Virus record (IMG/VR): IMGVR_UViG_2585428013_000006
Reading direction: 5' to 3' (one strand)
DNA from: a virus
Lineage: Duplodnaviria; Heunggongvirae; Uroviricota; Caudoviricetes
Length of the DNA: 31,244 nt
The translations under genes and the position numbers were made by a program. The notes beneath the pieces are model-generated. The model ran no database searches, had not been told where the DNA came from, and worked only from the letters and a program-made list of their open reading frames with translations. This document shows, in pieces, positions 966 through 25,828 of this stretch (its first letter is position 1; each line of letters begins with the position of its first letter).

Positions 966-2084
966 TTAAGACGTTGAATCGTCACTCTCCGCTGTCCAGT
1001 CGTCGATTTTTACTTCCAGTTCCAGCGACGTGGTAAACCCTCCCCCGCCAATATCGTGAACGCACCGCGTTATCGTCCAGTTCCCACTGTCGATCGTGGA
1101 CTTAAAGCCACAGACGCTGGCGGGCTGTTCCGGGTACAAATCTGTTCGGCCACGCGCCAGGGTGATGCTGAACGTCGCCGCTCCACGCTGCAACTCCCGC
1201 CACTTAGCCGCAGCGGCACGCTTTGCCGCCTTTTCCGTCTTGAAGGTTTTACGGATAACAAAAACGTTACCTTCTGCCCCGGCCAGATAATCCCCCTCTT
1301 TTTTGCTGGATGCAGGCTCTTTCTTTTTGGCCTGGCTGGTTCGGCGCCTGCGGGTTGTTTTCTTGACGGTAGTGGATGGTTTCTTGCCAAAGTTGAGATC
1401 AAGCCAGTATGCAGTTACGCCCGTGTACGCGTCGCGGTCAGCTACGTTAAAGCTATGTTTATCACCGCTTGACCGGACTATCTCGATCACCGGCAGCGGC
1501 TTGCCGCTCTGCGTCACTCCCTTGCCCGGCGTGATAAACAGAAGCATACCGTTTTTAATGGTTGCCACCGCGCCCAGCATTTCGGCCATGCGCGTTAAGA
1601 AGCTGATATCTGATTCACTCGTCTGATCGGCGTGGTCTATCTCAATCTTCGCCAGTTCTTCGCTGACGCCCGCACGCAGATCGTAGCGACTGGCAATGCT
1701 GGCGACCACATCCCCCACGGTAATATCGTGCCAGCTATATTCCCTCTTCACGTTGAAGGTATCGCGGAAATCCGCGCTTCTGGCACTGATCGTTAGCTGG
1801 TCAGGCGGGCCAGCGTGTCCGATCTCATCAACCGTATAGACGCCCTTAAAAACCAACGGATCATTATCCCAGCCCAGCGCCACCGATATCTTTGCACCGC
1901 GTGGTGGTAATGCTACCTGCCCGTCTGCATCATCCAGAGTCAGATCCAGCGTGTCCGCTTCAAAGCCCCGGTTATCAGTCAGGGAAAGAGAGATCAGCCG
2001 GTTATCCAGCGCCGTAAGCTGATTACCTTCAATTTCAATACTGAACGCCGGACGCGGCGAATATCGGTTTTCTGTCGTGTCCAT
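966..2084 (-). CDS. D: Tail protein D (phage late control D family)
   Basis: 372 aa; recognisable gpD-family sequence; ATG at 2084 with GAAGGGG upstream. Confidence 0.85.
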   Translation of the reverse strand: MDTTENRYSPRPAFSIEIEGNQLTALDNRLISLSLTDNRGFEADTLDLTLDDADGQVALPPRGAKISVALGWDNDPLVFKGVYTVDEIGHAGPPDQLTISARSADFRDTFNVKREYSWHDITVGDVVASIASRYDLRAGVSEELAKIEIDHADQTSESDISFLTRMAEMLGAVATIKNGMLLFITPGKGVTQSGKPLPVIEIVRSSGDKHSFNVADRDAYTGVTAYWLDLNFGKKPSTTVKKTTRRRRTSQAKKKEPASSKKEGDYLAGAEGNVFVIRKTFKTEKAAKRAAAAKWRELQRGAATFSITLARGRTDLYPEQPASVCGFKSTIDSGNWTITRCVHDIGGGGFTTSLELEVKIDDWTAESDDSTS

Positions 2085-2151
2085 ATCAACCCCTTCATCA
2101 TGATGGGGTACATCGTCGCCACGCGCGCGCGCATGAACAACGCCCCGTCAT

Positions 2152-2169
2152 TGTTGCAGGTTGCTGACA
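2152..2169. promoter_or_regulatory. TGT-N12-ACA dyad, candidate Ogr-dependent late promoter activator site (PF-like) in the D/FI divergent region
   Basis: TGTTGCAGGTTGCTGACA; centre about 81 bp upstream of the FI ATG and 76 bp upstream of the D ATG; (CG)5 tract at 2122-2132. Confidence 0.6.
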
Positions 2170-2241
2170 ACCCTTATTCATCGCATCGGCCTGCCATTGC
2201 CGCAATGATATTCGCAGTCATTAAACTGGCGAGGCAAATAC

Positions 2242-3435
2242 ATGGCCACTAACTACCATCGCGGTGTAACCGTCACGGAAACCACCGACCTTAGCACGAT
2301 GATCACCGACATTGATTCGGCGGTGATCGGTGTTGTCTGCACCGCTGATGATGCGGACGAAACAGCGTTCCCGCTGGATACCCCTGTACTGATCACCCGC
2401 GTGGCTAACATGCTGGGCAAGGCAGGTAAAACCGGCACCCTGTTTACCACCCTGAAAGCGATTTCAGACCAGACCAGCCCGCAAACCATTGTGATCCGCG
2501 TTGCTGATGCTGCAAATATCGAACCGCCAGAAGGCGGCACCGCTCCAACACAGGATCAACTGGTTATTGGCGGCACCGATGCAAACGGACGCTTTACCGG
2601 CATGTACGCGCTGCTGTCTGCCGAAATGCGCGTAGGCGTGCGCCCACGTGTGCTGGCTGTTCCCGGTCTTGATACGGAAGCGGTGGCCGCACAACTCGGC
2701 GTCATTGCCGAAAAGCTGCGCGCGTTTGCTTACGTGGCAGCGAACGGCTGCAACACCATCGCCGAAGTGAAGGAATACCGCGAACAGTTCTCCCAGCGTG
2801 AAATGATGGTTATCTGGCCTAATTTCATCTGCTACGACATCAACGCCGGGGCGAATGCTACCGTGCCCGTGGGTGCCCATGCGGTTGGGATGCGCGCCAA
2901 AATCGACGCAACGCAGGGCTGGCATAAAACCATTTCCAACGTGCCCGTTAATAACGTGCTGGGGATGGATCGGGATATCTATTTCACGTTGCAGGGCACC
3001 GATACCGACGCCGACGAACTGAACGCAGCAGGCGTTACCACGCTGATCAAGCAGGACGGCTACCGCATCTGGGGATCGCGTACCTGCGACGCAGAAACGT
3101 ATATCTTCGAAAGCTATACCCGAACCGCGCAGATCGTTGCGGATACCGTCGCCGAAGCCCATTTCGCCTATGTTGATAAACCGCTTACCCCGTCGCTGGT
3201 TAAGGACATTGTGGACGGCATCAATAAGAAGCTGACCTCATACGTGACGGCTGGCAAGCTGCTGGGCGCCCGCTGCTGGTATGACCCGGAACCGAATACC
3301 TCGGAAACCCTGCGCAATGGTCAACTGACCATTAAGTACAACTACACCCCTGTTCCACCGCTGGAAAATCTCAGCCTGGTACAGGAGTTTACCGACGAAT
3401 ATTTCGCTACGTTTTCCAGCGCAGTGAATAACTAA
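2242..3435 (+). CDS. FI: Contractile tail sheath protein FI
   Basis: 397 aa; strong resemblance to P2 FI throughout (e.g. GVPGLDT, KLRAF, NFSQRE.MVIWP, GWHKT.SNV, YTPVPPLENL); ATG at 2242. Confidence 0.95.
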   Translation: MATNYHRGVTVTETTDLSTMITDIDSAVIGVVCTADDADETAFPLDTPVLITRVANMLGKAGKTGTLFTTLKAISDQTSPQTIVIRVADAANIEPPEGGTAPTQDQLVIGGTDANGRFTGMYALLSAEMRVGVRPRVLAVPGLDTEAVAAQLGVIAEKLRAFAYVAANGCNTIAEVKEYREQFSQREMMVIWPNFICYDINAGANATVPVGAHAVGMRAKIDATQGWHKTISNVPVNNVLGMDRDIYFTLQGTDTDADELNAAGVTTLIKQDGYRIWGSRTCDAETYIFESYTRTAQIVADTVAEAHFAYVDKPLTPSLVKDIVDGINKKLTSYVTAGKLLGARCWYDPEPNTSETLRNGQLTIKYNYTPVPPLENLSLVQEFTDEYFATFSSAVNN

Positions 3436-3447
3436 CCGGGGGCGCTT

Positions 3448-3963
3448 ATGGCACTGCCTAAGAAACTTAAATATTTCAATATGTTTTTTGACGGTGATAA
3501 CTACTTCGGCATGGTGCCGGAAATTACCCCCGCCAAACTCACCAAAAAAACCGAAGACTACCAGGCGGGCGGTATGCCGGGTTCGGTTGCGGTGGATCTG
3601 GGCTTCGACGCTGGCGCCCTGGATATGGATATCACGCTTGGCGGTCTGGATGCCGGATTGCTTAAAAAATGGGGCGTTACCACTGCTGACGGGATGCAAA
3701 CACGTTTTGCTGGCTCCTATCAGGACGATGCGACCGGCGACGCTGTACCGTGCGAAATCCAGACGCGTGGCCGCTTCACTGAACTGGATCCCGGTTCGGC
3801 AAAAGTCGGGGATGACACTTCGCATAAGTACACCCTGAAAAACACCTATTACAAGCTGACCATCAACGGCGAAGAGATTATCGAAGTTGATGTGCTCAAC
3901 ATGATCTACAAAGTTGCCGGTGTGGATGTGCTGGAAAAACACCGCGCTAACATCGGCTTATAA
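3448..3963 (+). CDS. FII: Tail tube protein FII
   Basis: 171 aa, immediately after FI; size and position match P2 FII; ATG 3448 with G-rich RBS. Confidence 0.85.
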   Translation: MALPKKLKYFNMFFDGDNYFGMVPEITPAKLTKKTEDYQAGGMPGSVAVDLGFDAGALDMDITLGGLDAGLLKKWGVTTADGMQTRFAGSYQDDATGDAVPCEIQTRGRFTELDPGSAKVGDDTSHKYTLKNTYYKLTINGEEIIEVDVLNMIYKVAGVDVLEKHRANIGL

Positions 3964-3977
3964 GGAAACCCGGCACC

Positions 3978-4313
3978 ATGAGCAAGACCAAAGAAAACAC
4001 CGTTATTCTTACCGCCCCTATTACGCGCGGTAAGACCAAAATCACCGAGGTGGCGATCACTTCCGTGCTTAAACAGGCTGGATCACTGCGTGGTTTAAAA
4101 GCCTATGACGTGTTGACGTCCAACTATGACGCGCTGGTTATTCTTCTGCCCCGCGTTACCGCTCCGGCATTAACTGCCGATGAGATTGCCAGAATGGATA
4201 CCTGGGATTTTTGCCAGCTAGCCAACGCGGTGGTTGATTTTTTGCAACCCTCTTCGGATCTGAACGAGACGGATACGGGCAACGAATCATCCGATGCCCC
4301 TGCGAACGCATAG
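3978..4313 (+). CDS. E: Tail assembly chaperone E
   Basis: 111-aa ORF between the tube and tape-measure genes; AAGGAA RBS; contains slippery heptamer TTTTTTG at 4238-4244. Confidence 0.7.
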   Translation: MSKTKENTVILTAPITRGKTKITEVAITSVLKQAGSLRGLKAYDVLTSNYDALVILLPRVTAPALTADEIARMDTWDFCQLANAVVDFLQPSSDLNETDTGNESSDAPANA

Positions 4314-4438
4314 AAGACCTGATGGCAGATATCGCCGTCATATTCCACTGGCGGCCGGTAGAGATGGACGCCATGACGGTACAGGAAATACTGTTATGGC
4401 GTGATCAGGCGGCTGCGCGCAGTGGTGGAGATCACTAA
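3978..4438 (+). CDS. E+E' fusion product made by programmed -1 ribosomal frameshift at 4238-4244
   Basis: The -1 frame after T_TTT_TTG stays open for 65 codons and stops at TAA 4436-4438, immediately before the tape-measure ATG at 4439; matches the P2 E/E' arrangement. Confidence 0.55.
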
Positions 4439-7372
4439 ATGGCAGACCGCAATTTAAATATCAGGGTGGCATTCAGCGCCCTGAATAATATGTCCCGCCC
4501 TGTCAACGCGGCGCGCCAGAGTGCCGCCGCGTTGGCATCTCAAATCAATCAGACCAAAACCAGCATTAAAGGGCTTGAGCGTCAGGCAACCAGCTTTGAC
4601 CGCCTCACCGCAGCCAATAAAAAAACCACCGAACAACTGGCCCAGGCGAAAGAACAGGCCCGGCAAATGGCGGCGGCTTATGGCCCGTTACGCCAGCGTA
4701 GCGCCGAACAGGTTGCCGCTCTCAATCAGCAACGTGCAGCCATTCGCCAGTTAACCCAGCAGCAGAAAGGCGAGCAGACGCAGCTTAACCAGTTGCGCGC
4801 CAGCTTCTACAGCGAAGGCATTGCGATCAGCAGTGCCAGCCGGGCGACGGAACAGATCAACCAGCGCACCGCGCAATACAATCGCCAGCTTGCCGAACAG
4901 CAGCGACGGCTTGACGCTGTTAACCAGGCGCAGGCCCGTTACAGCCGCGCCAAAGAAACCGGCGAAAAGATGATGAGCGGGGGAATGAAAACCGCCGCAG
5001 TAGGGGCGGCAACCCTCGCACCTGTCGCCGCTGCGGTGAAATCCTACAGCAGCCTTGAAGACGCGATGAAGGGCGTAGCCAAACAGGTAAACGGCTTGCG
5101 TGACGACAGCGGCAACCGCACCCCGCAATATGAAGAAATGCAGCGGGCGATCATGGATGCCAGCGAAAAGCTGCCAATGGCTAACGGTGCTGTTGACTAT
5201 GCCGCCCTGGTCGAAGGCGGCGCGCGTATGGGCGTTGCAAACAGCGATGATCCGTGGGAAAAACAAAAAGCCGATCTGCTGGCTTTCGCCAGCATGGCGG
5301 CAAAAGCTTCGGTAGCCTTTGAACTGCCCGCCGATCAGCTTTCTGAAAGCCTGGGTAAAATTGCCGGGCTGTATAAAATCCCTACCCAGAATATTGAACA
5401 GTTGGGCGACGCCATAAACTACCTGGACGATAACGCGAAGTCGAAAGGCTCCGATATTATCGACGTGCTCCAGCGCGTTGGCGGGCTTGCCAGCCAACTG
5501 GATTACAAGCAAGCCGCCGCGCTGGGTTCCACCTTTCTGACGCTTGGATCACCTGCCGAAGTTGCCGCCAGCGCAACCAATGCAATGGTGCGCGAACTAT
5601 CGATTGCCACAGTACAAAGCGATAAATTTTTGGGTGCGCTGGATGAAATCGGCGTCAATGCTGAAAAAGTCCAGAAAAGCATGTCAGTGGACGCGATGGG
5701 CACGATTATTTCAGTGCTCGAAGCCTCTAAAAAACTTGCACCAGATAAGCAGGTAGCCAACCTTACCCAGATTTTCGGTAAAGAGTTCGGGGATGATGCG
5801 CAGAAACTTGCCAACAACCTGCCAGAACTGCGCCGCCAGATAGAACTGACGCAGGGCGCAGCCGCTAAAGGTTCCATGAACCGGGAATCTGATATTAATA
5901 AAGCTTCCCTTTCCGCTCAGTGGCAATTGACCAAAACCGGCGCGGTTAACGCATTCAGTTCAGCAGGGGAAACGCTCCGCGAACCGCTGATGGATATCAT
6001 GCTTACCGTCAGTAAGGTGATTGGCAGCGTCCGCCGCTGGGTTGAGGCAAACCCTGCGCTGGTTGGCTCAATCATGAAAGTCACCGCAGCCATAGGCGCG
6101 TTGCTGGTTGTCGTGGGTGGTCTGATGCTGTCTATCGGCGCAGTGCTGGGCCCGATGGCGCTTGTTCGCCTCAGCTTCACCACGCTGGCCGGGGAAGGAG
6201 GAATAGCACGGCTGACTGGCGGAGTAATGCGCCTGGGTGGTGCGTTCCAGTGGCTTGCTGGCTCGCCTATGCAGGCATTATTAAGCGCCGGTCGCATGGT
6301 ATTCGGCCCGCTTATCACGCTACTGGCTGGCATTTCTGCGCCCGTATGGGGGCTGATTGCGCTCTTTGCGGCAGCAGCAGTGGCCGTCATTAAATTCTGG
6401 GAACCAATACAGGCATTTTTCACTGGTTTCTTTAACGGTATCATGACGGGCTTGCAACCTGTATTTGATGCTTTCAACGCTGTTTTCGCTCCATTAGCCC
6501 CAATCTTTGACGCGATAGGCTCCGCTATTAGCGGCGTTTGGGATTGGTTTACAAAATTGCTTGAACCGATCAAATTTTCCAGCGATGCGTTAGAAACTTG
6601 CACTACTGTTGGCGAAACATTTGGGAGGGTTCTGGGTACTGCAATAAGCGGTTTGCTTTGGCCGCTACAAAAATTGATGGAGGGTGTCGGCTGGGTACTG
6701 GAGAAACTTGATCTAATTCCTGCTGGGCTTGATGCAGCAAACGCCAAAGCAAATAGCCTTAAAAAAGATCCCGTTGTCTGGGAGTGGGATCCGCAACAAA
6801 AGAAAATGGTTAAAAAGGATTGGAACTGGTCGCCAGATAAACCAAACCAGCCTAAACCGCCAAAACCGCCAATAACACCTAAGCCAGTTGGTATCCCAGA
6901 CCTTATGGGATCGCCGAACTTAACCCCGAAGATGAGCAAGAGTCTGGATAAAATCGCAGACAACACGGGAAAAATGGCAGCAAAAGACGGGCCCGGCGAA
7001 ATCGTCTTCAAGAATAAGCAGCCTTATATCCCGATCCGGGGCGGATATTCGGAACCGCTTAAGCAGGCGCAGCGCCAGCTACCATCCCTTACGGATTGGG
7101 TGACGCAGCAGGCCGGATCTCTGATCGCTTCCGTTACGCCGTGGCAGGTTGAGAAGCCCGCCGCACGGGTGCCCGTTTCGGCGTCGCCGTCTGCGGCCTC
7201 CGTCGCTGCGCTGATGCCCGCGCCGGGTGGCGATGTATATAACCTTAGCTTCGACTTTAGCGGCCAGAAACTGGATGAAGAAACCATTATCAGGCGCGTG
7301 CGCGAAGAACTTGCGTTAGCGAAGCAGCAGGCCGACCGGCGCAAGCGCTCCCAACTGATCGATCACGTCTAA
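4439..7372 (+). CDS. T: Tail tape measure protein T
   Basis: 977 aa; coiled-coil Q/A-rich N-terminus, hydrophobic Gly/Ala-rich central region; located after E/E'. Confidence 0.9.
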   Translation: MADRNLNIRVAFSALNNMSRPVNAARQSAAALASQINQTKTSIKGLERQATSFDRLTAANKKTTEQLAQAKEQARQMAAAYGPLRQRSAEQVAALNQQRAAIRQLTQQQKGEQTQLNQLRASFYSEGIAISSASRATEQINQRTAQYNRQLAEQQRRLDAVNQAQARYSRAKETGEKMMSGGMKTAAVGAATLAPVAAAVKSYSSLEDAMKGVAKQVNGLRDDSGNRTPQYEEMQRAIMDASEKLPMANGAVDYAALVEGGARMGVANSDDPWEKQKADLLAFASMAAKASVAFELPADQLSESLGKIAGLYKIPTQNIEQLGDAINYLDDNAKSKGSDIIDVLQRVGGLASQLDYKQAAALGSTFLTLGSPAEVAASATNAMVRELSIATVQSDKFLGALDEIGVNAEKVQKSMSVDAMGTIISVLEASKKLAPDKQVANLTQIFGKEFGDDAQKLANNLPELRRQIELTQGAAAKGSMNRESDINKASLSAQWQLTKTGAVNAFSSAGETLREPLMDIMLTVSKVIGSVRRWVEANPALVGSIMKVTAAIGALLVVVGGLMLSIGAVLGPMALVRLSFTTLAGEGGIARLTGGVMRLGGAFQWLAGSPMQALLSAGRMVFGPLITLLAGISAPVWGLIALFAAAAVAVIKFWEPIQAFFTGFFNGIMTGLQPVFDAFNAVFAPLAPIFDAIGSAISGVWDWFTKLLEPIKFSSDALETCTTVGETFGRVLGTAISGLLWPLQKLMEGVGWVLEKLDLIPAGLDAANAKANSLKKDPVVWEWDPQQKKMVKKDWNWSPDKPNQPKPPKPPITPKPVGIPDLMGSPNLTPKMSKSLDKIADNTGKMAAKDGPGEIVFKNKQPYIPIRGGYSEPLKQAQRQLPSLTDWVTQQAGSLIASVTPWQVEKPAARVPVSASPSAASVAALMPAPGGDVYNLSFDFSGQKLDEETIIRRVREELALAKQQADRRKRSQLIDHV

Positions 7373-7382
7373 GGGCAATATC

Positions 7383-7832
7383 ATGATGATGATTCTGGGG
7401 ATGTTCCCCTTTTCACTGCAAACCACGCCTTACCAGAGTGCGAATAAAACCAACTCCTGGCGGCACGTCAAAAACGATCGCGTGGGGAAATCCCCGCGCT
7501 ATCAGTTCATCGGCGCAGATGAAGAACCTTTCGTACTTAGCGGCACGCTGTACCCCGAAATAAGTGGCGGTGATGTGTCGCTTGTCATGCTGGAAACTAT
7601 GGCCTTTTCCGGGCGACCGTGGCCCCTGATAGAAGGTACGGGCAGGATCTACGGCATGTATGTGATTGAGCAGATCACGCAAAACCGGACGGAGTTTTTT
7701 AAGGACGGGAAGGCAAAGAAAATTGATTTTACGCTGAACCTGAAACGGGTAAGCGAGGACATACGGGAAAAGCTGGCCGAAACTACCACCGACGATCTCT
7801 TCTCTCTGGTGAAAACCAACCTTTCGATATAA
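7383..7832 (+). CDS. U: Tail protein U
   Basis: 149 aa immediately after T; gpU-like size and position. Confidence 0.8.
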   Translation: MMMILGMFPFSLQTTPYQSANKTNSWRHVKNDRVGKSPRYQFIGADEEPFVLSGTLYPEISGGDVSLVMLETMAFSGRPWPLIEGTGRIYGMYVIEQITQNRTEFFKDGKAKKIDFTLNLKRVSEDIREKLAETTTDDLFSLVKTNLSI

Positions 7833-7836
7833 GAAA

Positions 7837-7855
7837 AGCGGGCCTTTGCCCGCTT
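7837..7855. terminator. Hairpin terminator in the convergent U/G intergenic region
   Basis: AGCGGGC-CTTTG-GCCCGCT; T-run on the minus-strand side (TTTTCTTAT), C/T-rich on the plus side. Confidence 0.5.
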
Positions 7856-7881
7856 CCCCTCCTTGCGGCACTGCCATAACT

Positions 7882-7943
7882 GACCGTGCTGCAGCACCGT
7901 TAAAAATGACTGTACTCGATACGCACGGCCAGCACGGTTAGAA
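7882..7943. repeat. 62-bp intergenic repeat, copy 1; hairpin-capable; about 82 percent identical to 13913-13974
   Basis: Hand alignment: CCGTGCTG[C/G]AGCAC...AAAAATGAC...ATACGCACGGCCAGCAC[G/A]GTTA shared by both copies; terminal arms CCGTGCTG and CAGCACGG are reverse complements. Confidence 0.7.
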
Positions 7944-7969
7944 CCGGCCATGCGTGCCGGAATGAAAAC

Positions 7970-8566
7970 TTATTCCGGCTTATCCGGCCAGATGATATCC
8001 GGCGCTTTTGACGTGTCCACCGCCTGCACGGCTTTGATGTAGTTCATCCAGGCGATCAGGCTGGTTTTATCTTCATCGCTGATAATGCCTAACTGTAGCT
8101 CCGTCTGCCAGAGACTGATCGTTGCCTGCGCCTCACTCAATAACGCTGTTTTCTGTTGCTCCGCCGCTTCCACGTCCGCCGCGTGCTGCGCTTCGGTATC
8201 CGTCACCCACTCGCTACCGTTCCACGTATCATATGGCGTAGCAGGTGCCAGGGTGGTGGTATTTTCCGGGTAATCGCCAGGCAAAGAAACGATCAAGGAT
8301 TCGCCTGTTTCAGTACTGTATACCGTTTCACCACGGTGATCGGCGACGTATTCCCAGGCGGTCAAATCGGCTGTCCGGCAAATGGCCGAACCGGCTTTAG
8401 TTTTACCTGGTGCGTCAGTACAAGAGTTTGCGGGAAGACCGACGCCTACGGCCAGATATTCAACGGATGAAGAAAGGTATTCGCGCGTCTCACCCTCGAA
8501 GTTAAACACGGTAATATCACCGGCCACAGTAGCAATAAATTCACTGTTTAATTTTGCCTTTGCCAT
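7970..8566 (-). CDS. G: Tail fiber assembly protein (G-like)
   Basis: 198 aa directly downstream of the tail fiber gene; ATG 8566 overlaps the H stop. Confidence 0.75.
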   Translation of the reverse strand: MAKAKLNSEFIATVAGDITVFNFEGETREYLSSSVEYLAVGVGLPANSCTDAPGKTKAGSAICRTADLTAWEYVADHRGETVYSTETGESLIVSLPGDYPENTTTLAPATPYDTWNGSEWVTDTEAQHAADVEAAEQQKTALLSEAQATISLWQTELQLGIISDEDKTSLIAWMNYIKAVQAVDTSKAPDIIWPDKPE

Positions 8567-12087: not shown

Positions 12088-12225
12088 AGTGCTGACTGTT
12101 TCCCGTGGTGCCGGTTACGCTGTCCGGCGTCGCTTCCACCCGGTAGCAGGCTTTACGACCGTTTCGGCTTTTGGGTTATGCAGTCAGTATCAGGAGTCGC
12201 GCGCGCGCAAACAACGCGGCGCCAT

Positions 12226-12243
12226 TGTGGCGGGTTGGTGACA
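12226..12243. promoter_or_regulatory. TGT-N12-ACA dyad, candidate late promoter (PV-like) between S and V
   Basis: TGTGGCGGGTTGGTGACA; CGCGCGCGCGC tract at 12198-12208 lies between the dyad and V. Confidence 0.55.
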
Positions 12244-12244
12244 A

Positions 12245-12889: not shown

Positions 12890-13344
12890 GTTTCGCCGCT
12901 GACCTCATCAACAAATACCAGTGACCACGCGCCAATTTCTGGCCCCGGTGCAGGGTCAGCACGGTGACGGGTGACGATCTCGCCATCTTCACGGGTGACG
13001 ATCACCGCTTCATCAGCCTGAATCTGGATCAGCACGTCCATCGTGCTGTTACTCAGAATATCGGCTTCAAATGTTATGCCGTTCTGCTGCCTGTCCGGGT
13101 TAAACAACAGATCAGGCTGATATAAGCGCGCCCATGCCAGCACCGGCACGCTGATAGTATCCAGAGATTCAGGAAAATCCATCACCAGCACTTCCAGCGT
13201 ATAGCGATACTCAAACGCAGCAGCACGCTGGCCGGTGCTGACCATACGGCCTTTACGCAGGTAAACCGCCAGATTATCGGGATTCTCGCGCAGCCAGGGC
13301 ACATGCTGGCTTATCATCTGGCGCAGCAAATCGGGTTTAAGCAT
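12850..13344 (-). CDS. R: Tail completion protein R
   Basis: 164 aa; position after the lysis genes. Confidence 0.75.
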   Translation of the reverse strand: MLKPDLLRQMISQHVPWLRENPDNLAVYLRKGRMVSTGQRAAAFEYRYTLEVLVMDFPESLDTISVPVLAWARLYQPDLLFNPDRQQNGITFEADILSNSTMDVLIQIQADEAVIVTREDGEIVTRHRADPAPGPEIGAWSLVFVDEVSGETWQDNKPIPSSSS

Positions 13345-13877
13345 TACTTCTCCCTCCCGGACTTAACCGCATCATACGCAGCCTCACAGGCTAATCCTCT
13401 GGCTCTTGCTTCATCAGCATCTTTTGCCAGTTGCCCCGCTCGATCGTCAGCGCGGCGGAACAGGTCGGCGAGCAGTACGGCGCCGCTGGTTTCTGCCTCG
13501 CTTCTGCCGGAAGTTCCGGCACCGCAGGCGCGTTCACGGTCTGCCAGTTGCCTGGCGAGTTTGTCGGCCCTGTCGTGCAGCCCACGAGAAGCAGCACGGG
13601 CACGATCGGCATCAGCCTGCACGCCAGCAAGCTGCTGACTGGCTTGTTTTCTGATCGCATCAATTTCACCTTGTCGGCGTTGTTCTTCTGTCCTGGCCTC
13701 TGCCTGCCTTTTCGCCAGCGCGGTGGCGTCGCGTGCATCCCGCTGTGCCCACTCTCCACGCCAGTGCTTATCGGCATCACCGTAACCGGCGCTGTAACGC
13801 CAGTGGCTAAAACCCCATACAGCAGCAGCGGCCAGCACAAAACAAACGATCACTTTCCAGCGTGACAACAGCCCCAT
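13344..13877 (-). CDS. lysB: LysB, Rz-like inner-membrane spanin
   Basis: 177 aa; N-terminal transmembrane helix (VIVCFVLAAAAVWGF) then charged, Arg/Ala/Gln-rich coiled-coil region. Confidence 0.7.
   Translation of the reverse strand: MGLLSRWKVIVCFVLAAAAVWGFSHWRYSAGYGDADKHWRGEWAQRDARDATALAKRQAEARTEEQRRQGEIDAIRKQASQQLAGVQADADRARAASRGLHDRADKLARQLADRERACGAGTSGRSEAETSGAVLLADLFRRADDRAGQLAKDADEARARGLACEAAYDAVKSGREK
13391..13660 (-). CDS. lysC: LysC, Rz1-like outer-membrane lipoprotein spanin embedded in lysB in another frame
   Basis: Lipobox LLVGC after a short hydrophobic leader; Pro-rich mature part; alternative start at ATG 13612. Confidence 0.5.
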   Translation of the reverse strand: MRSENKPVSSLLACRLMPIVPVLLLVGCTTGPTNSPGNWQTVNAPAVPELPAEARQKPAAPYCSPTCSAALTIERGNWQKMLMKQEPED

Positions 13878-13912
13878 TTCAAAACCTCTCGCCAGCTCGC
13901 ACCGTCAATACA

Positions 13913-13974
13913 GGCCGTGCTGGAGCACTGTCAAAAATGACCGCGCTCAATACGCACGGCCAGCACAGTTAAAA
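13913..13974. repeat. 62-bp intergenic repeat, copy 2 (between K and lysB)
   Basis: Same element as 7882-7943, same orientation; 51 of 62 positions identical by hand alignment. Confidence 0.7.
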
Positions 13975-13978
13975 ATGA

Positions 13979-14413
13979 TCAGGCCAGAAATAACGTGCGC
14001 TCGGCTTCCCGACGCTTAACCAGCCCCGGCAACACCTTCCCGCCTGCTTTATTCCATTTCGGAAACTCAGCCGCAGCCCCGGCGTAATCCCCAGCATTCA
14101 GCTTTTTCAGCAGTGTGGAACCTTCCAGCGCCTTTACGCCCAGGTTGTAGGCAAAATCAACCAGCGCATCGAACTGATTTTGATTGATGGTGACTTTAAC
14201 CAGCCCCGTAACGCCTTTTTCATACTGCACCAGACCGCTACGCAACAGGCTATCGGCAGTTTCCTGCGTAATGGTCATACCCTTGCCAACCGGCACACCG
14301 TTGACGGGTTGAGTCCATCCATAACCGATCGTCCAGACGCCTACAGAATCCTGATAAGCGGCCAGCCTGCACCCTTCAAAGCCTTTCAGCATGTTGATGC
14401 CGTTATTGCTCAT
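13979..14413 (-). CDS. K: Endolysin (phage lysozyme, T4-lysozyme-like)
   Basis: Lysozyme-like motifs (GFEG.RL.AYQD, T.GYGWT); ATG at 14413 with GGTGGAG RBS (the track start 14419 is GTG). Confidence 0.85.
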   Translation of the reverse strand: MSNNGINMLKGFEGCRLAAYQDSVGVWTIGYGWTQPVNGVPVGKGMTITQETADSLLRSGLVQYEKGVTGLVKVTINQNQFDALVDFAYNLGVKALEGSTLLKKLNAGDYAGAAAEFPKWNKAGGKVLPGLVKRREAERTLFLA

Positions 14414-14738
14414 CTCCACCTTTCATCCCTCCGATTCGGTTTTCGATAAACCCGGTAACTTTGTTGCGGACTTTATCCGCGCCCATAAATCCGATTGAGG
14501 CGCCCACGAATGTTACTGCGTTGGACGGAAGCCCCAGATATTCCAGCGAACCGGCCACAGCAAGCGTGACAATCCCACATACCAGCGATCCGGTGGCGGT
14601 TTTAAGCAAAGACTGCCCATCGTAAAGGCTCATTAGCGCCGAAATACTCAGCGCCGCACCAGCCGCAAACAGTGTCGGCAGATAAGTAGCGATCCATTTC
14701 ATTGTTTGTTCGAGTAATCCCGGTGGTGTGTCGTGCAT
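14403..14738 (-). CDS. Y: Holin
   Basis: About 111 aa with hydrophobic helices; ATG 14738 preceded by GGGGGAGG; the track ORF extends further 5' into gene X in another frame. Confidence 0.65.
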   Translation of the reverse strand: MHDTPPGLLEQTMKWIATYLPTLFAAGAALSISALMSLYDGQSLLKTATGSLVCGIVTLAVAGSLEYLGLPSNAVTFVGASIGFMGADKVRNKVTGFIENRIGGMKGGDEQ

Positions 14739-14748
14739 ACCCTCCCCC

Positions 14749-14949
14749 TTAATCCCATAGCTGCACGGTTTCCCGCTGGGCTGGCGGCTGGATCTCTGGC
14801 AGGTAGACAATCTGCCCGGCCTGCAACTCAGTGGCGGCGGAAATGCCCTTATTGGCATCGATCACCGCCTCGGTAACGCCTGCTGTTCTGCCGTAATAGC
14901 GCCAGCAAAGCAGGTCGATCGTGTCGTTTTGCTGCGCCTGAACGTTCAT
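14749..14949 (-). CDS. X: Tail protein X
   Basis: 66 aa; size and position between L and the holin. Confidence 0.75.
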   Translation of the reverse strand: MNVQAQQNDTIDLLCWRYYGRTAGVTEAVIDANKGISAATELQAGQIVYLPEIQPPAQRETVQLWD

Positions 14950-21279: not shown

Positions 21280-21349
21280 CGCCAGCCCGGACACACCCAC
21301 CACCACCGTGGAACGGCCAGCACGGCCGCAACTGACCACACCGCACGTA

Positions 21350-21649: not shown

Positions 21650-21677
21650 AAGGGCTTTGTTAGCCCTTAATTTTTTA
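21650..21677. terminator. Bidirectional hairpin terminator ending the accessory operon
   Basis: AAGGGCT-TTGTT-AGCCCTT flanked by A-run and T-run. Confidence 0.65.
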
Positions 21678-22313
21678 CCTTCCCCACTCCCGATCAGGAA
21701 GTCGATCTTTGAAGGCAAGGTAATCGTAAAACTCACGAGTATGGGAAAAGATACATTCGCACATTGCAGCGCCAGCGTTTGAAAGAGCCAATTTCAACAT
21801 GCCGTCAGGTTTAGGATTGCTCACCAAATTTTCATAAACTTGAGCCTGATCTGTACCGTGGACACATAACAAAAGTGACGACTCAAAGGTAACAACTGCA
21901 TCCAGTAAACGCTGATGAATCACGGAAAGGGCCGGTTGGTTTGCAACAATTGCAGTCAAACAGCGGCGATCACCCGTCATGAAAATGGCTTCTGGGTTCT
22001 CTATGCACGAGGCAAGCAATAGCTGTTCGCCTACATCAATTCCGGGCACACTCCCCAAAAGCTCAATAAGCTGTGAGTCCTGAACTTCCGGGATATCCTG
22101 TACAGATTCAATGAAGGCTCCCACCTGCTCGTAAACAACCTGGCTACCACACTTCCTGATTGCTTTATCAGGATTTTTCGGCAGAAGCTGAAAACGAGCA
22201 GCAGGGTTAATGAAGATCTGTTCGGGGGGTTGATTAAAAACCACTGGCAGTTGTGATAACAGATTGCACTGGGCCAGCTTCAAAATGACATCATTGTCAG
22301 AAAGAACAATCAC
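21675..22313 (-). CDS. Hypothetical protein, possible PIN-like nuclease fold; second gene of the accessory pair
   Basis: 212 aa; GTG start after tandem TAA TAA; N-terminal IVLSDNDVI and later IFMTGDRR resemble PIN acidic motifs (weak, by eye); AT-richer than the phage core. Confidence 0.45.
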   Translation of the reverse strand: MIVLSDNDVILKLAQCNLLSQLPVVFNQPPEQIFINPAARFQLLPKNPDKAIRKCGSQVVYEQVGAFIESVQDIPEVQDSQLIELLGSVPGIDVGEQLLLASCIENPEAIFMTGDRRCLTAIVANQPALSVIHQRLLDAVVTFESSLLLCVHGTDQAQVYENLVSNPKPDGMLKLALSNAGAAMCECIFSHTREFYDYLAFKDRLPDREWGR

Positions 22314-22316
22314 TTA

Positions 22317-23315
22317 TTATTCCCCGATTAGATTTTCTAAAACCTTAAGATCATCTTCGTGGATATTTTCTAAATCCATCCCGCTTTTCATCATGGCCCT
22401 CACAAAATCCTGATCTGAGTCTTCACCAGCACAGAGTGCTTTAACAGCGTTAACAGCAGCACCCCAGCAGTTCTGCGCGAAACCATAATTTAAAGCGATG
22501 TGAGTCGGGTCAATGTGATTATCACTTCCAAACTTTTGAGCCGCGCGAGCCAAGCCAGGCCCATTCAACCTGCCAGCGGTAGGAACGATACGTAAAGACT
22601 TCTGCCCCGAAATGACCTGGAAAGCGAATTCGTTGGCTTCTTTCTCTACGTTGTCCGTCGAAGCATTCTCAATTTTTGCATCAATATGGCACTGCCCGTT
22701 TTCTGCGTTCAGATGCCCTCTGGCGATATGGCCTAACTCATGCGCGAGATCAAACAGCATATAGCCATATTTCTGAGGCTGAGTAAGAACAATCACCGGG
22801 CGCCCGTGACTCATTAGTGCCAGCCCGGCCATTTTTTTGGCAGCTTGAGGGAAGCATTTTAGATAAACAACAGGAATGCCAATCGAATGACAGTATGTTA
22901 CCAGGCTATCTAACGATACCCATGATTCCTTAGTAAGAATCTGGGTTCTTATCGCCAAAGGATCAAGCACTGCACTGGAATCGTAAGGGACTTTGAAATT
23001 AGACGCGACAATACCGGCCGCAGTATAGGCAACAGCAGTAGCGATATCTAAATCGTTCTCGGCTACATTTTGGCGATGTTTATATTTATGGTTTCCACCA
23101 AAATTAAAGCATACCCCTTCGCTACCATCTTTCAGGCTATCCGGGAGAATGCTAAACATACGCGCAAGGTGCAGGCACGCATACTGGCGCCCTGATGGGG
23201 TGTCAGCAAGCTTCTCATCCCACCAGTCAGGCAACAACCTGCGGATGTAAGAGAGATTAAACCCGGCCCGGCCGAATTTAGAATATATCTGACTCATCTG
23301 ATTATGGTTCGTCAT
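22317..23315 (-). CDS. ImmA/IrrE-family (M78-like) zinc metallopeptidase domain protein with unknown N-terminal region
   Basis: 332 aa; HELGH followed by EKEANEFA, the arrangement typical of ImmA/IrrE peptidases; AGGAGG SD; occupies the P2 old/tin position. Confidence 0.7.
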   Translation of the reverse strand: MTNHNQMSQIYSKFGRAGFNLSYIRRLLPDWWDEKLADTPSGRQYACLHLARMFSILPDSLKDGSEGVCFNFGGNHKYKHRQNVAENDLDIATAVAYTAAGIVASNFKVPYDSSAVLDPLAIRTQILTKESWVSLDSLVTYCHSIGIPVVYLKCFPQAAKKMAGLALMSHGRPVIVLTQPQKYGYMLFDLAHELGHIARGHLNAENGQCHIDAKIENASTDNVEKEANEFAFQVISGQKSLRIVPTAGRLNGPGLARAAQKFGSDNHIDPTHIALNYGFAQNCWGAAVNAVKALCAGEDSDQDFVRAMMKSGMDLENIHEDDLKVLENLIGE

Positions 23316-23473: not shown

Positions 23474-25828
23474 TTAGTTCCGCGAAAATGCTGCTTTCAT
23501 CCTGTTCACAAGATCACTTGTTTTTTGCTTCGCCGCCATCACCTGCGACGGTAGCTTATCCAGCCCGGACGCTGCGCGGTTGCGCGATACCAGCCGCCCG
23601 TCCTGCACGGTCATAACAAGATCGCCGCACGCCACTGACGCACCGGCCATCATCGATCTGACCATTCCAGCGCTGGCATCAATCCCACGTAGCGCCAGCA
23701 GTTCACTGATCTGCTGCTCTTTGACTGATAGCCCTGCTCCCTCTTCCCGTTCCGGTGGCCGCGTTTTCCGCTTGGCGCGTACATCGTCACTTAATCGCTG
23801 CGCCAGTTCCCGTTTTTCTTGCCGTGAAAGAGCATCAAAATTCACCGTCTCGCCCACTTCGTGATCGGCATGTTCAAGACCGTCTGCACTTGTCGCGGGA
23901 TCCCGCGTACAGTTATTGACAGAACTCCGAGGGGCGGCGTTGCCGCCTGAAAAACCAACGTCAACGGCCACACCGTCAACGCTCTGGCGCTTCGGCACGA
24001 TTTTGTATTGAGTGGTGCGGGTGAAGATCAAAGAGTCATTGCCCGTAATCGGGCAGTAAATACCGGTGATTCGCTGGACGTTATCGCCGTAGGCGTTGCC
24101 GTTCTCAGTGGTTTCATAATTCAGACGAATGCGCAGCTTATCGCGCTCAACCAATGGGCCACCCTGGGCTAATACGTAGTTATCCCATTCGCCACCGTTA
24201 GCGGCCTGCCGGGCGGTTTCCAGTTCAGGGTGTAGCACCAGTTCGCGATCGCCCAGGCGGCGAAGTTCGCGATATACCGTGACCGGCGCACCGCCGATCT
24301 GCTGAAACTGACGAATAGCCCAGCGCGATGCCCACGCGCTAACGCGGAGTGACATTTCTTTCAGGTCTTCCCCGGTTTCGTCGTCCTTCTCACCATCCAG
24401 CGCGAAGCCGTCGATATTCTTCGAAATGTATTTCGCTATGTAGCCGGTTGCGCTGCCGTGGGCATCGTCGATCGGCACAACCTGAAAGCGGTTTTCCTGC
24501 GCTCCCGGTTCGTTGCCGTCTTCTTTCAGGGCATATTTACGGAAGATTTCGCGCGCCTGCTTGACGCATTCCGGGCGCATAAAAAGAAGTAAATGCCAGT
24601 GTGGCGTTGCATCGTGGTGCGGTTCGACCACGCGGAAACCAAAGACGCGGATCCCTTTTCTCTTCCACGCTGCGCGGGTTCTCGCCCAGACTTTGCAAAG
24701 ATATTGCTGCGTCTCGCGCGGCGACGCGCCACAGTATTTATTATTGCGGCGCCCGTTATGCTGCATGGAGTGGTAACGGGAAGGTGCTGTTAGCGTGTAG
24801 AAGTCACCGGCCAGCCCTTCCAGCTTCGCCAAATCTTCAAATCCGCGCATTCTCGTCATGAGTTCGCGGCGACGGTTGGCCGGATTGGCAACACTACCGG
24901 CGACTTTATCGATCAGTGAAATGCGTTCGCCCGTGTCCTGGTCTTCCAGTTCCATAGCCTTAAGGTATTCACGGTTAGCCTTTTTCTGGGCCAGCCATTC
25001 CGTGAGGCACGGGGCGCTACTGTATGGGGAAGATTTTTTCTGGACGTATCCCGCTGCGATCATCAAATGCTCACGCCACCTGGCATGGATACGGCGCAGG
25101 CGGTTTAACCACCACTGCGGTGACTCAAGGCGAAGAACCGCGCGTAACGCGTCCTCCGCTTCCAGTTCTTCATTGCAATACGCCGTCCAGCCGGGGATCG
25201 GCGTTTTCAGATGCACCGCCAGCGACGCAATACGGCCATAGCCCGAAAGCGCCGCGAACTCAGGATCTCCGGTGCGTGCCAACTGGTGATCGGACTCGCG
25301 TATAAACTCGCTCGTAAAGATATCGGCAAGCGTATAAGCCAGTCTTTTTAACTCTTTCTTCCCTGCCCAGAGCATACGGAAAAGCTGATCGCGGATTGGT
25401 AGCAGAATGCCGGGCATCACAGTGTCAGGCTGGTAAACACTGTTCACGCTATCAATACGCGTTAATACGTGGCGCTCAAAGGTATTAACCAGCCAGTGAT
25501 CTGCCGCTTTACGGTCTTTCGCGTCCAGTGCATCCAGCTTCGCGGCAAAGTGGCGGCGGATATACTGCGGAAGGGAAGCCAGACGGCGACGCAGCAGCTT
25601 GCTGCGCTCCGGCTTTTCGTCCTCCGCTACCAGTTCACTGAACGCAATATGCTTGCGGGTGCCGTCCGGCGTGAGATAGTCGAAACCATCCAGCCCCGGC
25701 GCTACATCAACGCCAATCGGCTGGTATGGTTTGTTCCCGCCATAAGCGTAAGGGATAGCATTATCAGTGCTACCCGGATACGATGGAGGTGGAGAAGGGG
25801 CGCGACGGCCACGGGTTGCCGTGGTCAT
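23474..25828 (-). CDS. A: Replication initiation endonuclease A (rolling-circle)
   Basis: 784 aa; P2 gpA-like size and position; ATGA overlap with the upstream methylase gene. Confidence 0.9.
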   Translation of the reverse strand: MTTATRGRRAPSPPPSYPGSTDNAIPYAYGGNKPYQPIGVDVAPGLDGFDYLTPDGTRKHIAFSELVAEDEKPERSKLLRRRLASLPQYIRRHFAAKLDALDAKDRKAADHWLVNTFERHVLTRIDSVNSVYQPDTVMPGILLPIRDQLFRMLWAGKKELKRLAYTLADIFTSEFIRESDHQLARTGDPEFAALSGYGRIASLAVHLKTPIPGWTAYCNEELEAEDALRAVLRLESPQWWLNRLRRIHARWREHLMIAAGYVQKKSSPYSSAPCLTEWLAQKKANREYLKAMELEDQDTGERISLIDKVAGSVANPANRRRELMTRMRGFEDLAKLEGLAGDFYTLTAPSRYHSMQHNGRRNNKYCGASPRETQQYLCKVWARTRAAWKRKGIRVFGFRVVEPHHDATPHWHLLLFMRPECVKQAREIFRKYALKEDGNEPGAQENRFQVVPIDDAHGSATGYIAKYISKNIDGFALDGEKDDETGEDLKEMSLRVSAWASRWAIRQFQQIGGAPVTVYRELRRLGDRELVLHPELETARQAANGGEWDNYVLAQGGPLVERDKLRIRLNYETTENGNAYGDNVQRITGIYCPITGNDSLIFTRTTQYKIVPKRQSVDGVAVDVGFSGGNAAPRSSVNNCTRDPATSADGLEHADHEVGETVNFDALSRQEKRELAQRLSDDVRAKRKTRPPEREEGAGLSVKEQQISELLALRGIDASAGMVRSMMAGASVACGDLVMTVQDGRLVSRNRAASGLDKLPSQVMAAKQKTSDLVNRMKAAFSRN

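Follow-up and report, generated by a model that had tools for sequence, protein, structure and literature searches.

Gene organization and repeats of the lysis region

The window, by which we mean the whole stretch of 31,244 nucleotides that was analysed, is a P2-like prophage (Peduoviridae, Senquatrovirus) of 31 kb. P2-like prophages rank among the most frequent prophages of enteric bacteria; their host-range, lysis and defence cassettes are exchanged at module junctions. In the window, the head, lysis, tail-completion and baseplate genes are all located on the minus strand. The 1.6-kb lysis region (13300–14900), which was the part compared, shares 96% identity with Salmonella phages SEN4 and SEN5. 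Judged from its encoded proteins, the lysis cassette of this SEN4/5-like prophage is lambda-type in nature; it contains one S-like holin, one GH24 lysozyme and one Rz with an embedded Rz1 (Table 1).

The endolysin and Rz genes are separated by a gap of 101 nt. According to the list of open reading frames, the gap contains no minus-strand frame of 30 aa or more; its sole frame is 36 aa in length and lies on the plus strand. The initial annotation had placed one copy of a 62-bp repeat (13913–13974) in this gap, ahead of the lysB equivalent. The repeat is real, and it forms part of a longer, 76-nt segment that is 80% identical to a second segment downstream of the tail-fibre assembly gene; a repeat search identified the pair (copy 2 and copy 1, respectively) as the longest direct repeat of the window. 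In self-BLAST, the pair scored 74.5 bits, compared to 25–43 bits for the best repeat in each of 30 shuffled windows (maximum 42.8 bits).

Table 1. Features of the two repeat copies and of the neighbouring genes in the window
Feature	Position	Strand	Remarks
gpU-like tail gene	7383–7832	+	Convergent on repeat copy 1
Strong terminator hairpin	7831–7860	.	GGGGAAGCGGGC AAAG GCCCGCUUUUCUU; between copy 1 and the convergent gpU stop
Repeat copy 1, class B	7868–7943	-	3' UTR of the tail-fibre assembly gene; profile match 7869–7948
Long hairpin of copy 1	7917–7959	-	Upstream flank with unit 3 and linker; 13-bp main helix and 3-bp outer helix
Tail-fibre assembly gene (Caudo_TAP)	7970–8566	-	Upstream of repeat copy 1
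Rz-like i-spanin, lysB equivalent	13344–13877	-	DUF2514, E = 1e-25
Embedded Rz1-like lipoprotein frame, lysC equivalent	13391–13612	-	MPIVPVLLLVGC...; lipobox LLLVGC
Endolysin–Rz intercistronic gap	13878–13978	-	101 nt; endolysin stop 13979–13981, Rz start 13875–13877
Ribosome-binding site for Rz	13885–13890	-	GAGAGG, 7 nt ahead of ATG; within the inserted DNA
Third, degenerate palindrome (HP-1)	13898–13921	-	GCACGGCC..TGACGGTGC
Repeat copy 2, class A	13899–13974	-	Sense is the window minus strand; profile match 13900–13979, nhmmer E = 3e-21
Middle palindrome (HP-2)	13924–13947	-	AGCGCGGTCA TTTT TGACAGTGCT, 9 of 10 pairs
U5 tract	13933–13937	-	Directly 3' of the terminator-like hairpin; also loop and closing base of HP-2
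Terminator-like hairpin	13938–13962	-	UGGCCGUGC-GUAUUGA-GCGCGGUCA; 9 bp (6 GC), 7-nt loop, -14.9 kcal/mol
Unit 3, 3' half	13962–13971	-	TAACTGTGCT, then invariant CTGGCC; 5' half replaced by the endolysin gene end
GH24 endolysin, 146 aa	13979–14419	-	Pfam Phage_lysozyme PF00959, E = 1.8e-51
Lambda S-type holin	14403–14735	-	PF05106; start set by analogy with the 110-aa SEN5 annotation, full frame to 14858

One further stretch of the window, a 26-nt fragment at 21313–21338 (ACGGCCAGCACGGCCGCAACTGACCA), is similar to the 3' end of the repeat; it directly follows the stop codon of the portal gene and is itself followed by a terminator-like hairpin. The profile search missed this fragment, and its likeness to the repeat may be due to chance.

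Composition and distribution of the element family

Using pattern scans and a profile search, we collected 148 hits, representing 89 unique instances of the element. The building block is one imperfect palindrome, AGCACnGTCA-N4-TGACnGTGCT, with CTG after it in every case (either CTGGCC… or CTGCAG). Tandem arrays consist of two or three such blocks, with an invariant linker, CTGGCC-(5 to 9 nt)-ATCGAG, between them; some class C loci (see below) contain an additional hairpin upstream. The loops of the palindromes are mostly not U-runs, for example GAAA, AATC, TTCC or GGTC. In the window the palindrome occurs six times, compared to one expected occurrence, and four of the six are within the two repeat copies.

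All instances are located in P2-like phage contigs or prophages of Enterobacterales, with Salmonella, Citrobacter, Klebsiella, Raoultella, Kosakonia, Yokenella, Erwinia and Izhakiella among the hosts. In the genome scan, the reading frames on either side of the element matched genes of P2-like phages. In E. coli the element is present in 32 of 5426 complete genomes, at a median of about two places each and inside prophages; being restricted to prophages, it is not a host-wide repeat of the REP/ERIC kind. The only GenBank phages with the element are SEN4/5, Enterobacter phage phiT5282H and Salmonella phages SI7, SW3 and SW5. Each genome carries one to three copies, and the profile search found no copy in the P2 genome.

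The copies are found at three junctions, and every instance is co-oriented with the flanking genes. Class A is located between endolysin and Rz, in the SEN4-like lineage only. Class B lies between the tail-fibre assembly (chaperone) gene and the convergent gpU, and is followed by a strong terminator. Class C, the most diverse class, is found between gpA, or a small reading frame after gpA, and a D12-class Dam-like methylase. SEN5 possesses all three classes (third copy at L001 31269–31345), whereas the window has no class C copy because the methylase was replaced by other genes. Copies without the methylase are carried by both phiT5282H and the window, and the methylase was rejected as a co-occurring partner protein on this ground.

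The stretch of the window downstream of gpA (21675–23315) corresponds to a known variable hotspot of P2. It encodes an IrrE/M78-peptidase-like protein (22317–23315) and a 212-aa product with no Pfam match; at the same position, SEN5 contains a small reading frame, the class C repeat and the Dam-like methylase.

The DNA upstream of class A and class B copies has been swapped among relatives, and the copies are located exactly at the mosaic joints. The upstream neighbours of class A belong to four unrelated endolysin types (GH24; an M15 peptidase with a different holin; a 128/129-aa protein; a 159-aa protein), and homology among the class A loci restarts exactly at TCATTTTTAAC, continuing into the same element and the same Rz. 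Phages with P2 organization carry solitary half-elements, such as GTATCGAG-palindrome-CTGCAG in L187, between the terminator of the V operon (tail-fibre operon) and the F late promoter.

Several structural variants occur in the family. In L033 (about 5410–5550) the whole cassette is duplicated in tandem. L073 (2436–2478) has suffered a deletion between internal direct repeats, from unit 3 to unit 2, and the hairpin is missing; in L089 and L095 (about 2425–2479) the repeat-to-repeat deletion runs from unit 2 to unit 1, and the third unit is missing.

The element is not mentioned in the genome paper on SEN4/5 (PMC5261728) or in the paper on the P2 hotspot (PMC9122126). It is apparently an undescribed, conserved, hairpin-rich spacer at gene-module junctions of enteric P2-like prophages. 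The bare palindrome pattern also matches one conserved sequence, CACAGTCATCACTGACCGTGCTGCTCGAAACG, in L170–L236 (∼27 marine viral contigs); we treated it as probably unrelated, since the linker and flanking motifs of the family are missing there.

Insertion of the element between endolysin and Rz

According to the P2 record, the gene order at the lysis locus of P2 is Y-K-lysA-lysB/lysC. As stated in the initial annotation, the gap contains no lysA-like reading frame, for which about 140 aa would be expected, in keeping with the size of its frames and with a tblastn search that gave no match to P2 LysA. In fact, none of the P2 proteins Y, K, LysA and LysB had a tblastn match in the window, in complete SEN5 or in the related loci L001–L167; only P2 itself matched. 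The proposal that the repeat sits where P2 has lysA is thus correct for the map position only, since the whole cassette is non-orthologous to that of P2.

A view of the uninterrupted locus comes from Novemvirus-like relatives with the same cassette (L098–L104). At the amino-acid level, their holin is 91%, their endolysin 82–84% and their Rz 76–79% identical to those of the window; other parts of their late region show just 40–50% identity. In these relatives, and in L106 with its different endolysin, the endolysin stop overlaps the Rz start (ATGA; …TCATGAGC…), leaving no spacer, repeat or lysA. Alignment places the ATGA overlap of L098 and L102 opposite an insert of ∼99 nt in the window and in SEN5. 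Among more distant phages with Rz, endolysin and Rz abut or overlap in L108–L116; the gap of L107 is ∼200 nt. These comparisons indicate that the ancestral state is a coupled endolysin–Rz pair, and that the SEN4-like lineage gained an insertion of ∼99 nt with its own GAGAGG site. The repeat is therefore an insertion rather than a replacement of lysA.

That the repeat came with, or caused, a lysA deletion is contradicted by the same relatives, which have the cassette with neither repeat nor lysA; with P2-type lysis genes wholly absent as well, a lysA-deletion scar in a P2-type cassette, for which only the map position between endolysin and the lysB equivalent speaks, is hardly credible and can be regarded as refuted. 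Of the two observations that the initial annotation named as refuting, the first, lysA-less cassettes with no repeat among relatives, was made; the second, a lack of conservation, was not, as the element is strongly conserved (see below). For annotation, the lesson is that this gap of 100 nt does not stand for a missing gene.

The insertion borders, TGA|TCATTTTT ... TTTTGAA|ATG, show neither terminal inverted repeats nor target-site duplication, and a MITE or other small transposable element was rejected on this ground.

Conservation and folding of the element

Compared to the flanking DNA, the core of the element is highly conserved. In 11 diverse class C loci, its mean pairwise identity is 0.72–0.85, compared to 0.1–0.34 for the upstream DNA and 0.19 for the stretch between core and methylase ribosome-binding site. 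The class B core is 0.86–0.93 identical, while the values are 0.3–0.65 for the fibre-assembly gene (tfa) and ∼0.72 for gpU. This difference between core and flanks argues that the sequence of the element is itself under selection. More conserved than the surrounding genes and located exactly at three junctions, the element is a candidate control point; it could control late-gene dosage and the stoichiometry of lysis and spanin proteins, the priming of replication, or the exchange of cassettes.

The stems, the ATCGAG linker and the CTG are all conserved as sequence, beyond mere pairing. At position 6 of HP-2, the 'n' of the building block, 13 of 34 sequences can pair, which equals the random expectation. 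Together, these features make sequence-specific recognition of the element likely. When all classes were analysed together under a two-helix model, no covariation above shuffles was observed. For class C (33 sequences), 87.9% of the cells in the two palindromes are paired, a value reached by none of 500 shuffles, and the covariation score was reached by only one of 500; pairs with double changes are no more numerous than in shuffles. The class C alignment contains 70 G.U cells vs 35 A.C cells, and one of its pairs follows the path T-A, T.G, C-G. The sense-strand fold of the region has a z-score of -3.1. Taken together, this mixed evidence mildly favours folding of the sense strand, either as RNA or as single-stranded DNA.

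The minimum-free-energy fold also contains one long outer helix (GGCCGUGC/GCACGGCC); we rejected it, as it has no covariation support and is deleted in class C. A search of the window against Rfam gave no match at gathering score over its full length, and 13850–14010 gave none even at E values up to 10; a known RNA family was discarded accordingly.

A terminator-like hairpin in copy 2

Within copy 2, the linker can pair with the 5' arm of the middle palindrome, forming a GC-rich hairpin that is directly followed by the U5 tract. Intrinsic (Rho-independent) terminators were defined by a GC-rich stem of at least 5 bp, a loop of 3–8 nt and at least five U in the 8 nt past the stem, on the transcribed strand; 13962–13938 together with TTTTTGAC has all these features. 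This hairpin and its TTTTT were also flagged by a terminator scan of the minus strand, which gave two hits vs 0.5 expected. All class A variants retain the hairpin, with predicted stabilities of -10 to -15 kcal/mol, and each of the three class A substitutions in the 3' arm leaves the sense RNA able to pair. The corresponding hairpin is weak in most copies of classes B and C (-0.3 to -7 kcal/mol).

Because a 9-bp GC-rich hairpin is followed by U5 on the transcribed strand, punctuation of transcription by copy 2 is plausible. We tentatively favour the explanation, possible though well short of established, that copy 2 is an attenuator or mRNA punctuation mark within the late operon and, in addition, a joint for cassette swaps. 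The SEN4-like lineage acquired ∼99 nt of cassette between a lambda-type endolysin gene and Rz; the insertion broke the translational coupling of the two genes and gave Rz a new ribosome-binding site. In the long late mRNA, which includes the cassette in its sense orientation, the linker of copy 2 would pair with the 5' arm of the middle palindrome, and the resulting 9-bp hairpin with its U5 may act as a partial intrinsic terminator (attenuator), as a structure that protects 3' ends, or as both. Either way, the swappable holin–endolysin pair would be split from Rz/Rz1 and from R and S, the tail-completion genes, and expression of all these downstream genes would be lowered or uncoupled. The cassette is also a patch of homology through which holin–endolysin modules were exchanged.

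There is a precedent for an attenuator in this operon, as the P2 record (NC_001895) annotates a putative one, inside lysC. Like the putative P2 attenuator, copy 2 lies in the late operon near the border between lysis and tail-completion genes. Different from it, copy 2 has a short U-tract and a fold that is not common to classes B and C, and the two share no sequence relationship.

Several observations argue against the attenuator. The U-tract is only 5 nt in length. The stems, linker and CTG are kept as sequence, and double compensatory changes do not exceed those of shuffles. Natural variants exist without the hairpin (L073) or without the third unit (L089 and L095). Little mRNA is expected at the half-elements of P2-organised phages, which are found between the V-operon terminator and the late promoter of F. 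Since the strong hairpin with U-tract is found in class A only and the loops elsewhere are not U-runs, termination is unlikely to be the function common to the family.

For class B, we considered an independent small RNA gene and rejected it, as a promoter-like site is present upstream in just 7 of 32 flanks. The window itself has a sigma-70-like site, TGGACA-16-TATCAT, at 7992–8019 on the minus strand, in the 3' end of the tail-fibre assembly gene and directed towards copy 1 and the terminator. This site is unlikely to represent a conserved promoter: among the 7 of 32 related flanks with a promoter-like site, 4 have it at the same position.

Alternative explanations for the element

The element could instead be a selfish or near-neutral linker with no role in expression or replication, spread by ectopic recombination and kept as homology for cassette swaps. 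We regard this as unlikely, although much of its history would fit: copies are located exactly at mosaic joints, at least two moves of the element underlie classes A, B and C, tandem duplication (L033) and internal repeat-to-repeat deletions (L073, L089 and L095) have occurred, and many P2-like phages, P2 included, live without it. On the other hand, context-specific signatures are kept across genera and the core exceeds the adjacent coding DNA in conservation, which argues for purifying selection on the sequence of the element. The lack of terminal inverted repeats and target duplication, and the low number of one to three copies per genome, are also not those of a selfish element.

A model for such a linker is provided by PeSL of T4-like phages, which are composite cassettes of an early promoter and a stem-loop (PMC2839356, PMC4122927). 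Like PeSL, the element is a short, conserved intergenic stem-loop cassette that is repeated per genome, located at the borders of exchangeable modules and co-oriented with transcription. Different from PeSL, it has tandem palindromes and a conserved linker, only one to three copies per genome and no detectable sigma-70 promoter (a consensus scan found no sigma-70-like site in 13700–14100); recombination between copies was not observed, and the phage family and operon logic differ.

Alternatively, the element may be an array of double-stranded operators, in which each 20–24-bp palindrome would bind one dimer of a phage or host protein and thereby regulate or insulate the neighbouring genes. The bases of the half-sites are kept as sequence, the central 4 bp and the 'n' positions vary freely, every cassette offers two or three sites at fixed spacing, and the enrichment of the palindrome in the window and its repeat copies is of the kind expected of operators. 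However, the immunity and late-promoter regions of the window contain no site, the candidate phage regulators diverge strongly among lineages that share the element (gpA, 34–40% identity), and no co-occurring gene was found, phiT5282H having class B but not the MT45 methylase. Neither the excess of G.U over A.C nor the T-A, T.G, C-G path would be expected for a site that is recognized as duplex. We therefore consider an operator array improbable.

By eye, the alignments fit none of the known sites that were considered, namely the Ogr-type late promoter (TGT-N12-ACA), the LexA box, IHF, CRP, matS, Chi and sigma-54. For a LexA-like CTGT-N8-ACAG, the variable 'n' positions would have to be fixed.

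An equally improbable explanation is that the tandem hairpins and their 3' CTG act as single-stranded DNA, on the strand displaced during rolling-circle replication by gpA, where they would provide a G4-type or ssi start for DnaG and SSB or for a primosome. In G4ori, three stem-loops are present, the primer is begun at 5'-CTG-3' on their 3' side, and primase plus SSB suffice (PMC6783573). Like this complementary-strand origin, the element is intergenic and has two or three adjacent stem-loops on one strand with an invariant CTG after each, in a replicon with a phiX-type gpA nickase. All copies are on the DNA strand of gpA coding; class C, ∼0.4–0.6 kb beyond the conserved nick core of gpA, would be in the first intergenic DNA to be displaced, and the half-elements are in a poorly transcribed zone past a terminator. 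The bias towards G.U (G.T) fits folding of sense-strand single-stranded DNA equally well, and SEN5 and the window have no homologue of the P2 helicase loader gpB by BLAST, an absence that does not amount to proof of no loader.

Different from the G4 origin, the host replicon is a 31-kb double-stranded DNA phage, and neither strand of the element resembles G4 oric in sequence, local alignment scores being within those of shuffles. The identity of the displaced strand follows by analogy with phiX174 and P2, no instance separates the DNA strand from the direction of transcription, and P2 replicates without such elements. A combined reading, in which the cassette is an unrecognised cis-acting replication element as well as a homology patch for module exchange in a P2-like branch without a gpB-type loader, strikes us as quite improbable. 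If the replication reading is true, lagging-strand synthesis would begin from hairpins recognized by primase, at fixed positions between genes: one directly beyond the gpA origin, one behind the tail-fibre operon and one within the late operon.

The nick-site core of gpA, CCCCTCGGAGTTCTGTCAATAACTGTACG, is at 23906–23934 on the minus strand of the window, inside gpA and flanked by GC hairpins; it does not differ among 20 related sequence variants, and the P2 version (GCCTCGGAGTCCTGTCAATAACTGT) is almost the same. Antisense to copy 2, at 13921–13936 of the plus strand, GGAGCACTGTCAAAAA matches GGAGTTCTGTCAATAA of this core at 13 of 16 positions, a likeness that was noticed post hoc and that classes B and C show more weakly.

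Relation to other known elements

The kind of element is familiar, as repeated intergenic stem-loop cassettes at phage module borders recall PeSL, REP and ssi; no prior description of this element was found. REP/BIME are imperfect palindromes in transcribed intergenic DNA, often in tandem, and are thought to stabilise upstream segments of mRNA. Like REP/BIME, the element consists of tandem imperfect palindromes in transcribed intergenic DNA, but it differs from them in sequence, and we saw no GTAG motif and no RAYT partner. With integron attC sites it shares an imperfect palindrome that closes exchangeable cassettes at their 3' end, in the orientation of the genes; attC itself was rejected on inspection of the alignments, as the RYYYAAC/GTTRRRY boundary motifs are not conserved and there is no integron integrase. 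As for a mimic of CRISPR repeats (an RNA anti-CRISPR), the one known likeness to the E. coli type I-E and I-F repeats is a 7-nt coincidence, CACTGCC, with type I-F. In practice, the element is a landmark for engineering SEN4-like phages, in which endolysin or tail-fibre modules could be swapped at a natural joint.

Rearrangement and a second direct repeat in the window

In the region 966–7832 of the window, the FI-FII-E-T-U block is inverted compared to P2; it lies on the plus strand, with the remaining late genes on the minus strand. gpD is set apart from this block and is divergent to it, and repeat copy 1 is located at the G|U end of the rearrangement. The window also contains one 47-nt direct repeat (2124–2170 and 12198–12244, 81% identity), both copies of which include TGT-N12-ACA, the P2 Ogr-type late-activator site. 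One copy is upstream of gpV, and the other is in the 157-nt gap between gpD (966–2084, minus strand) and gpFI (2242–3435, plus strand), where it may serve both directions, like the shared pO/pP site of P2.
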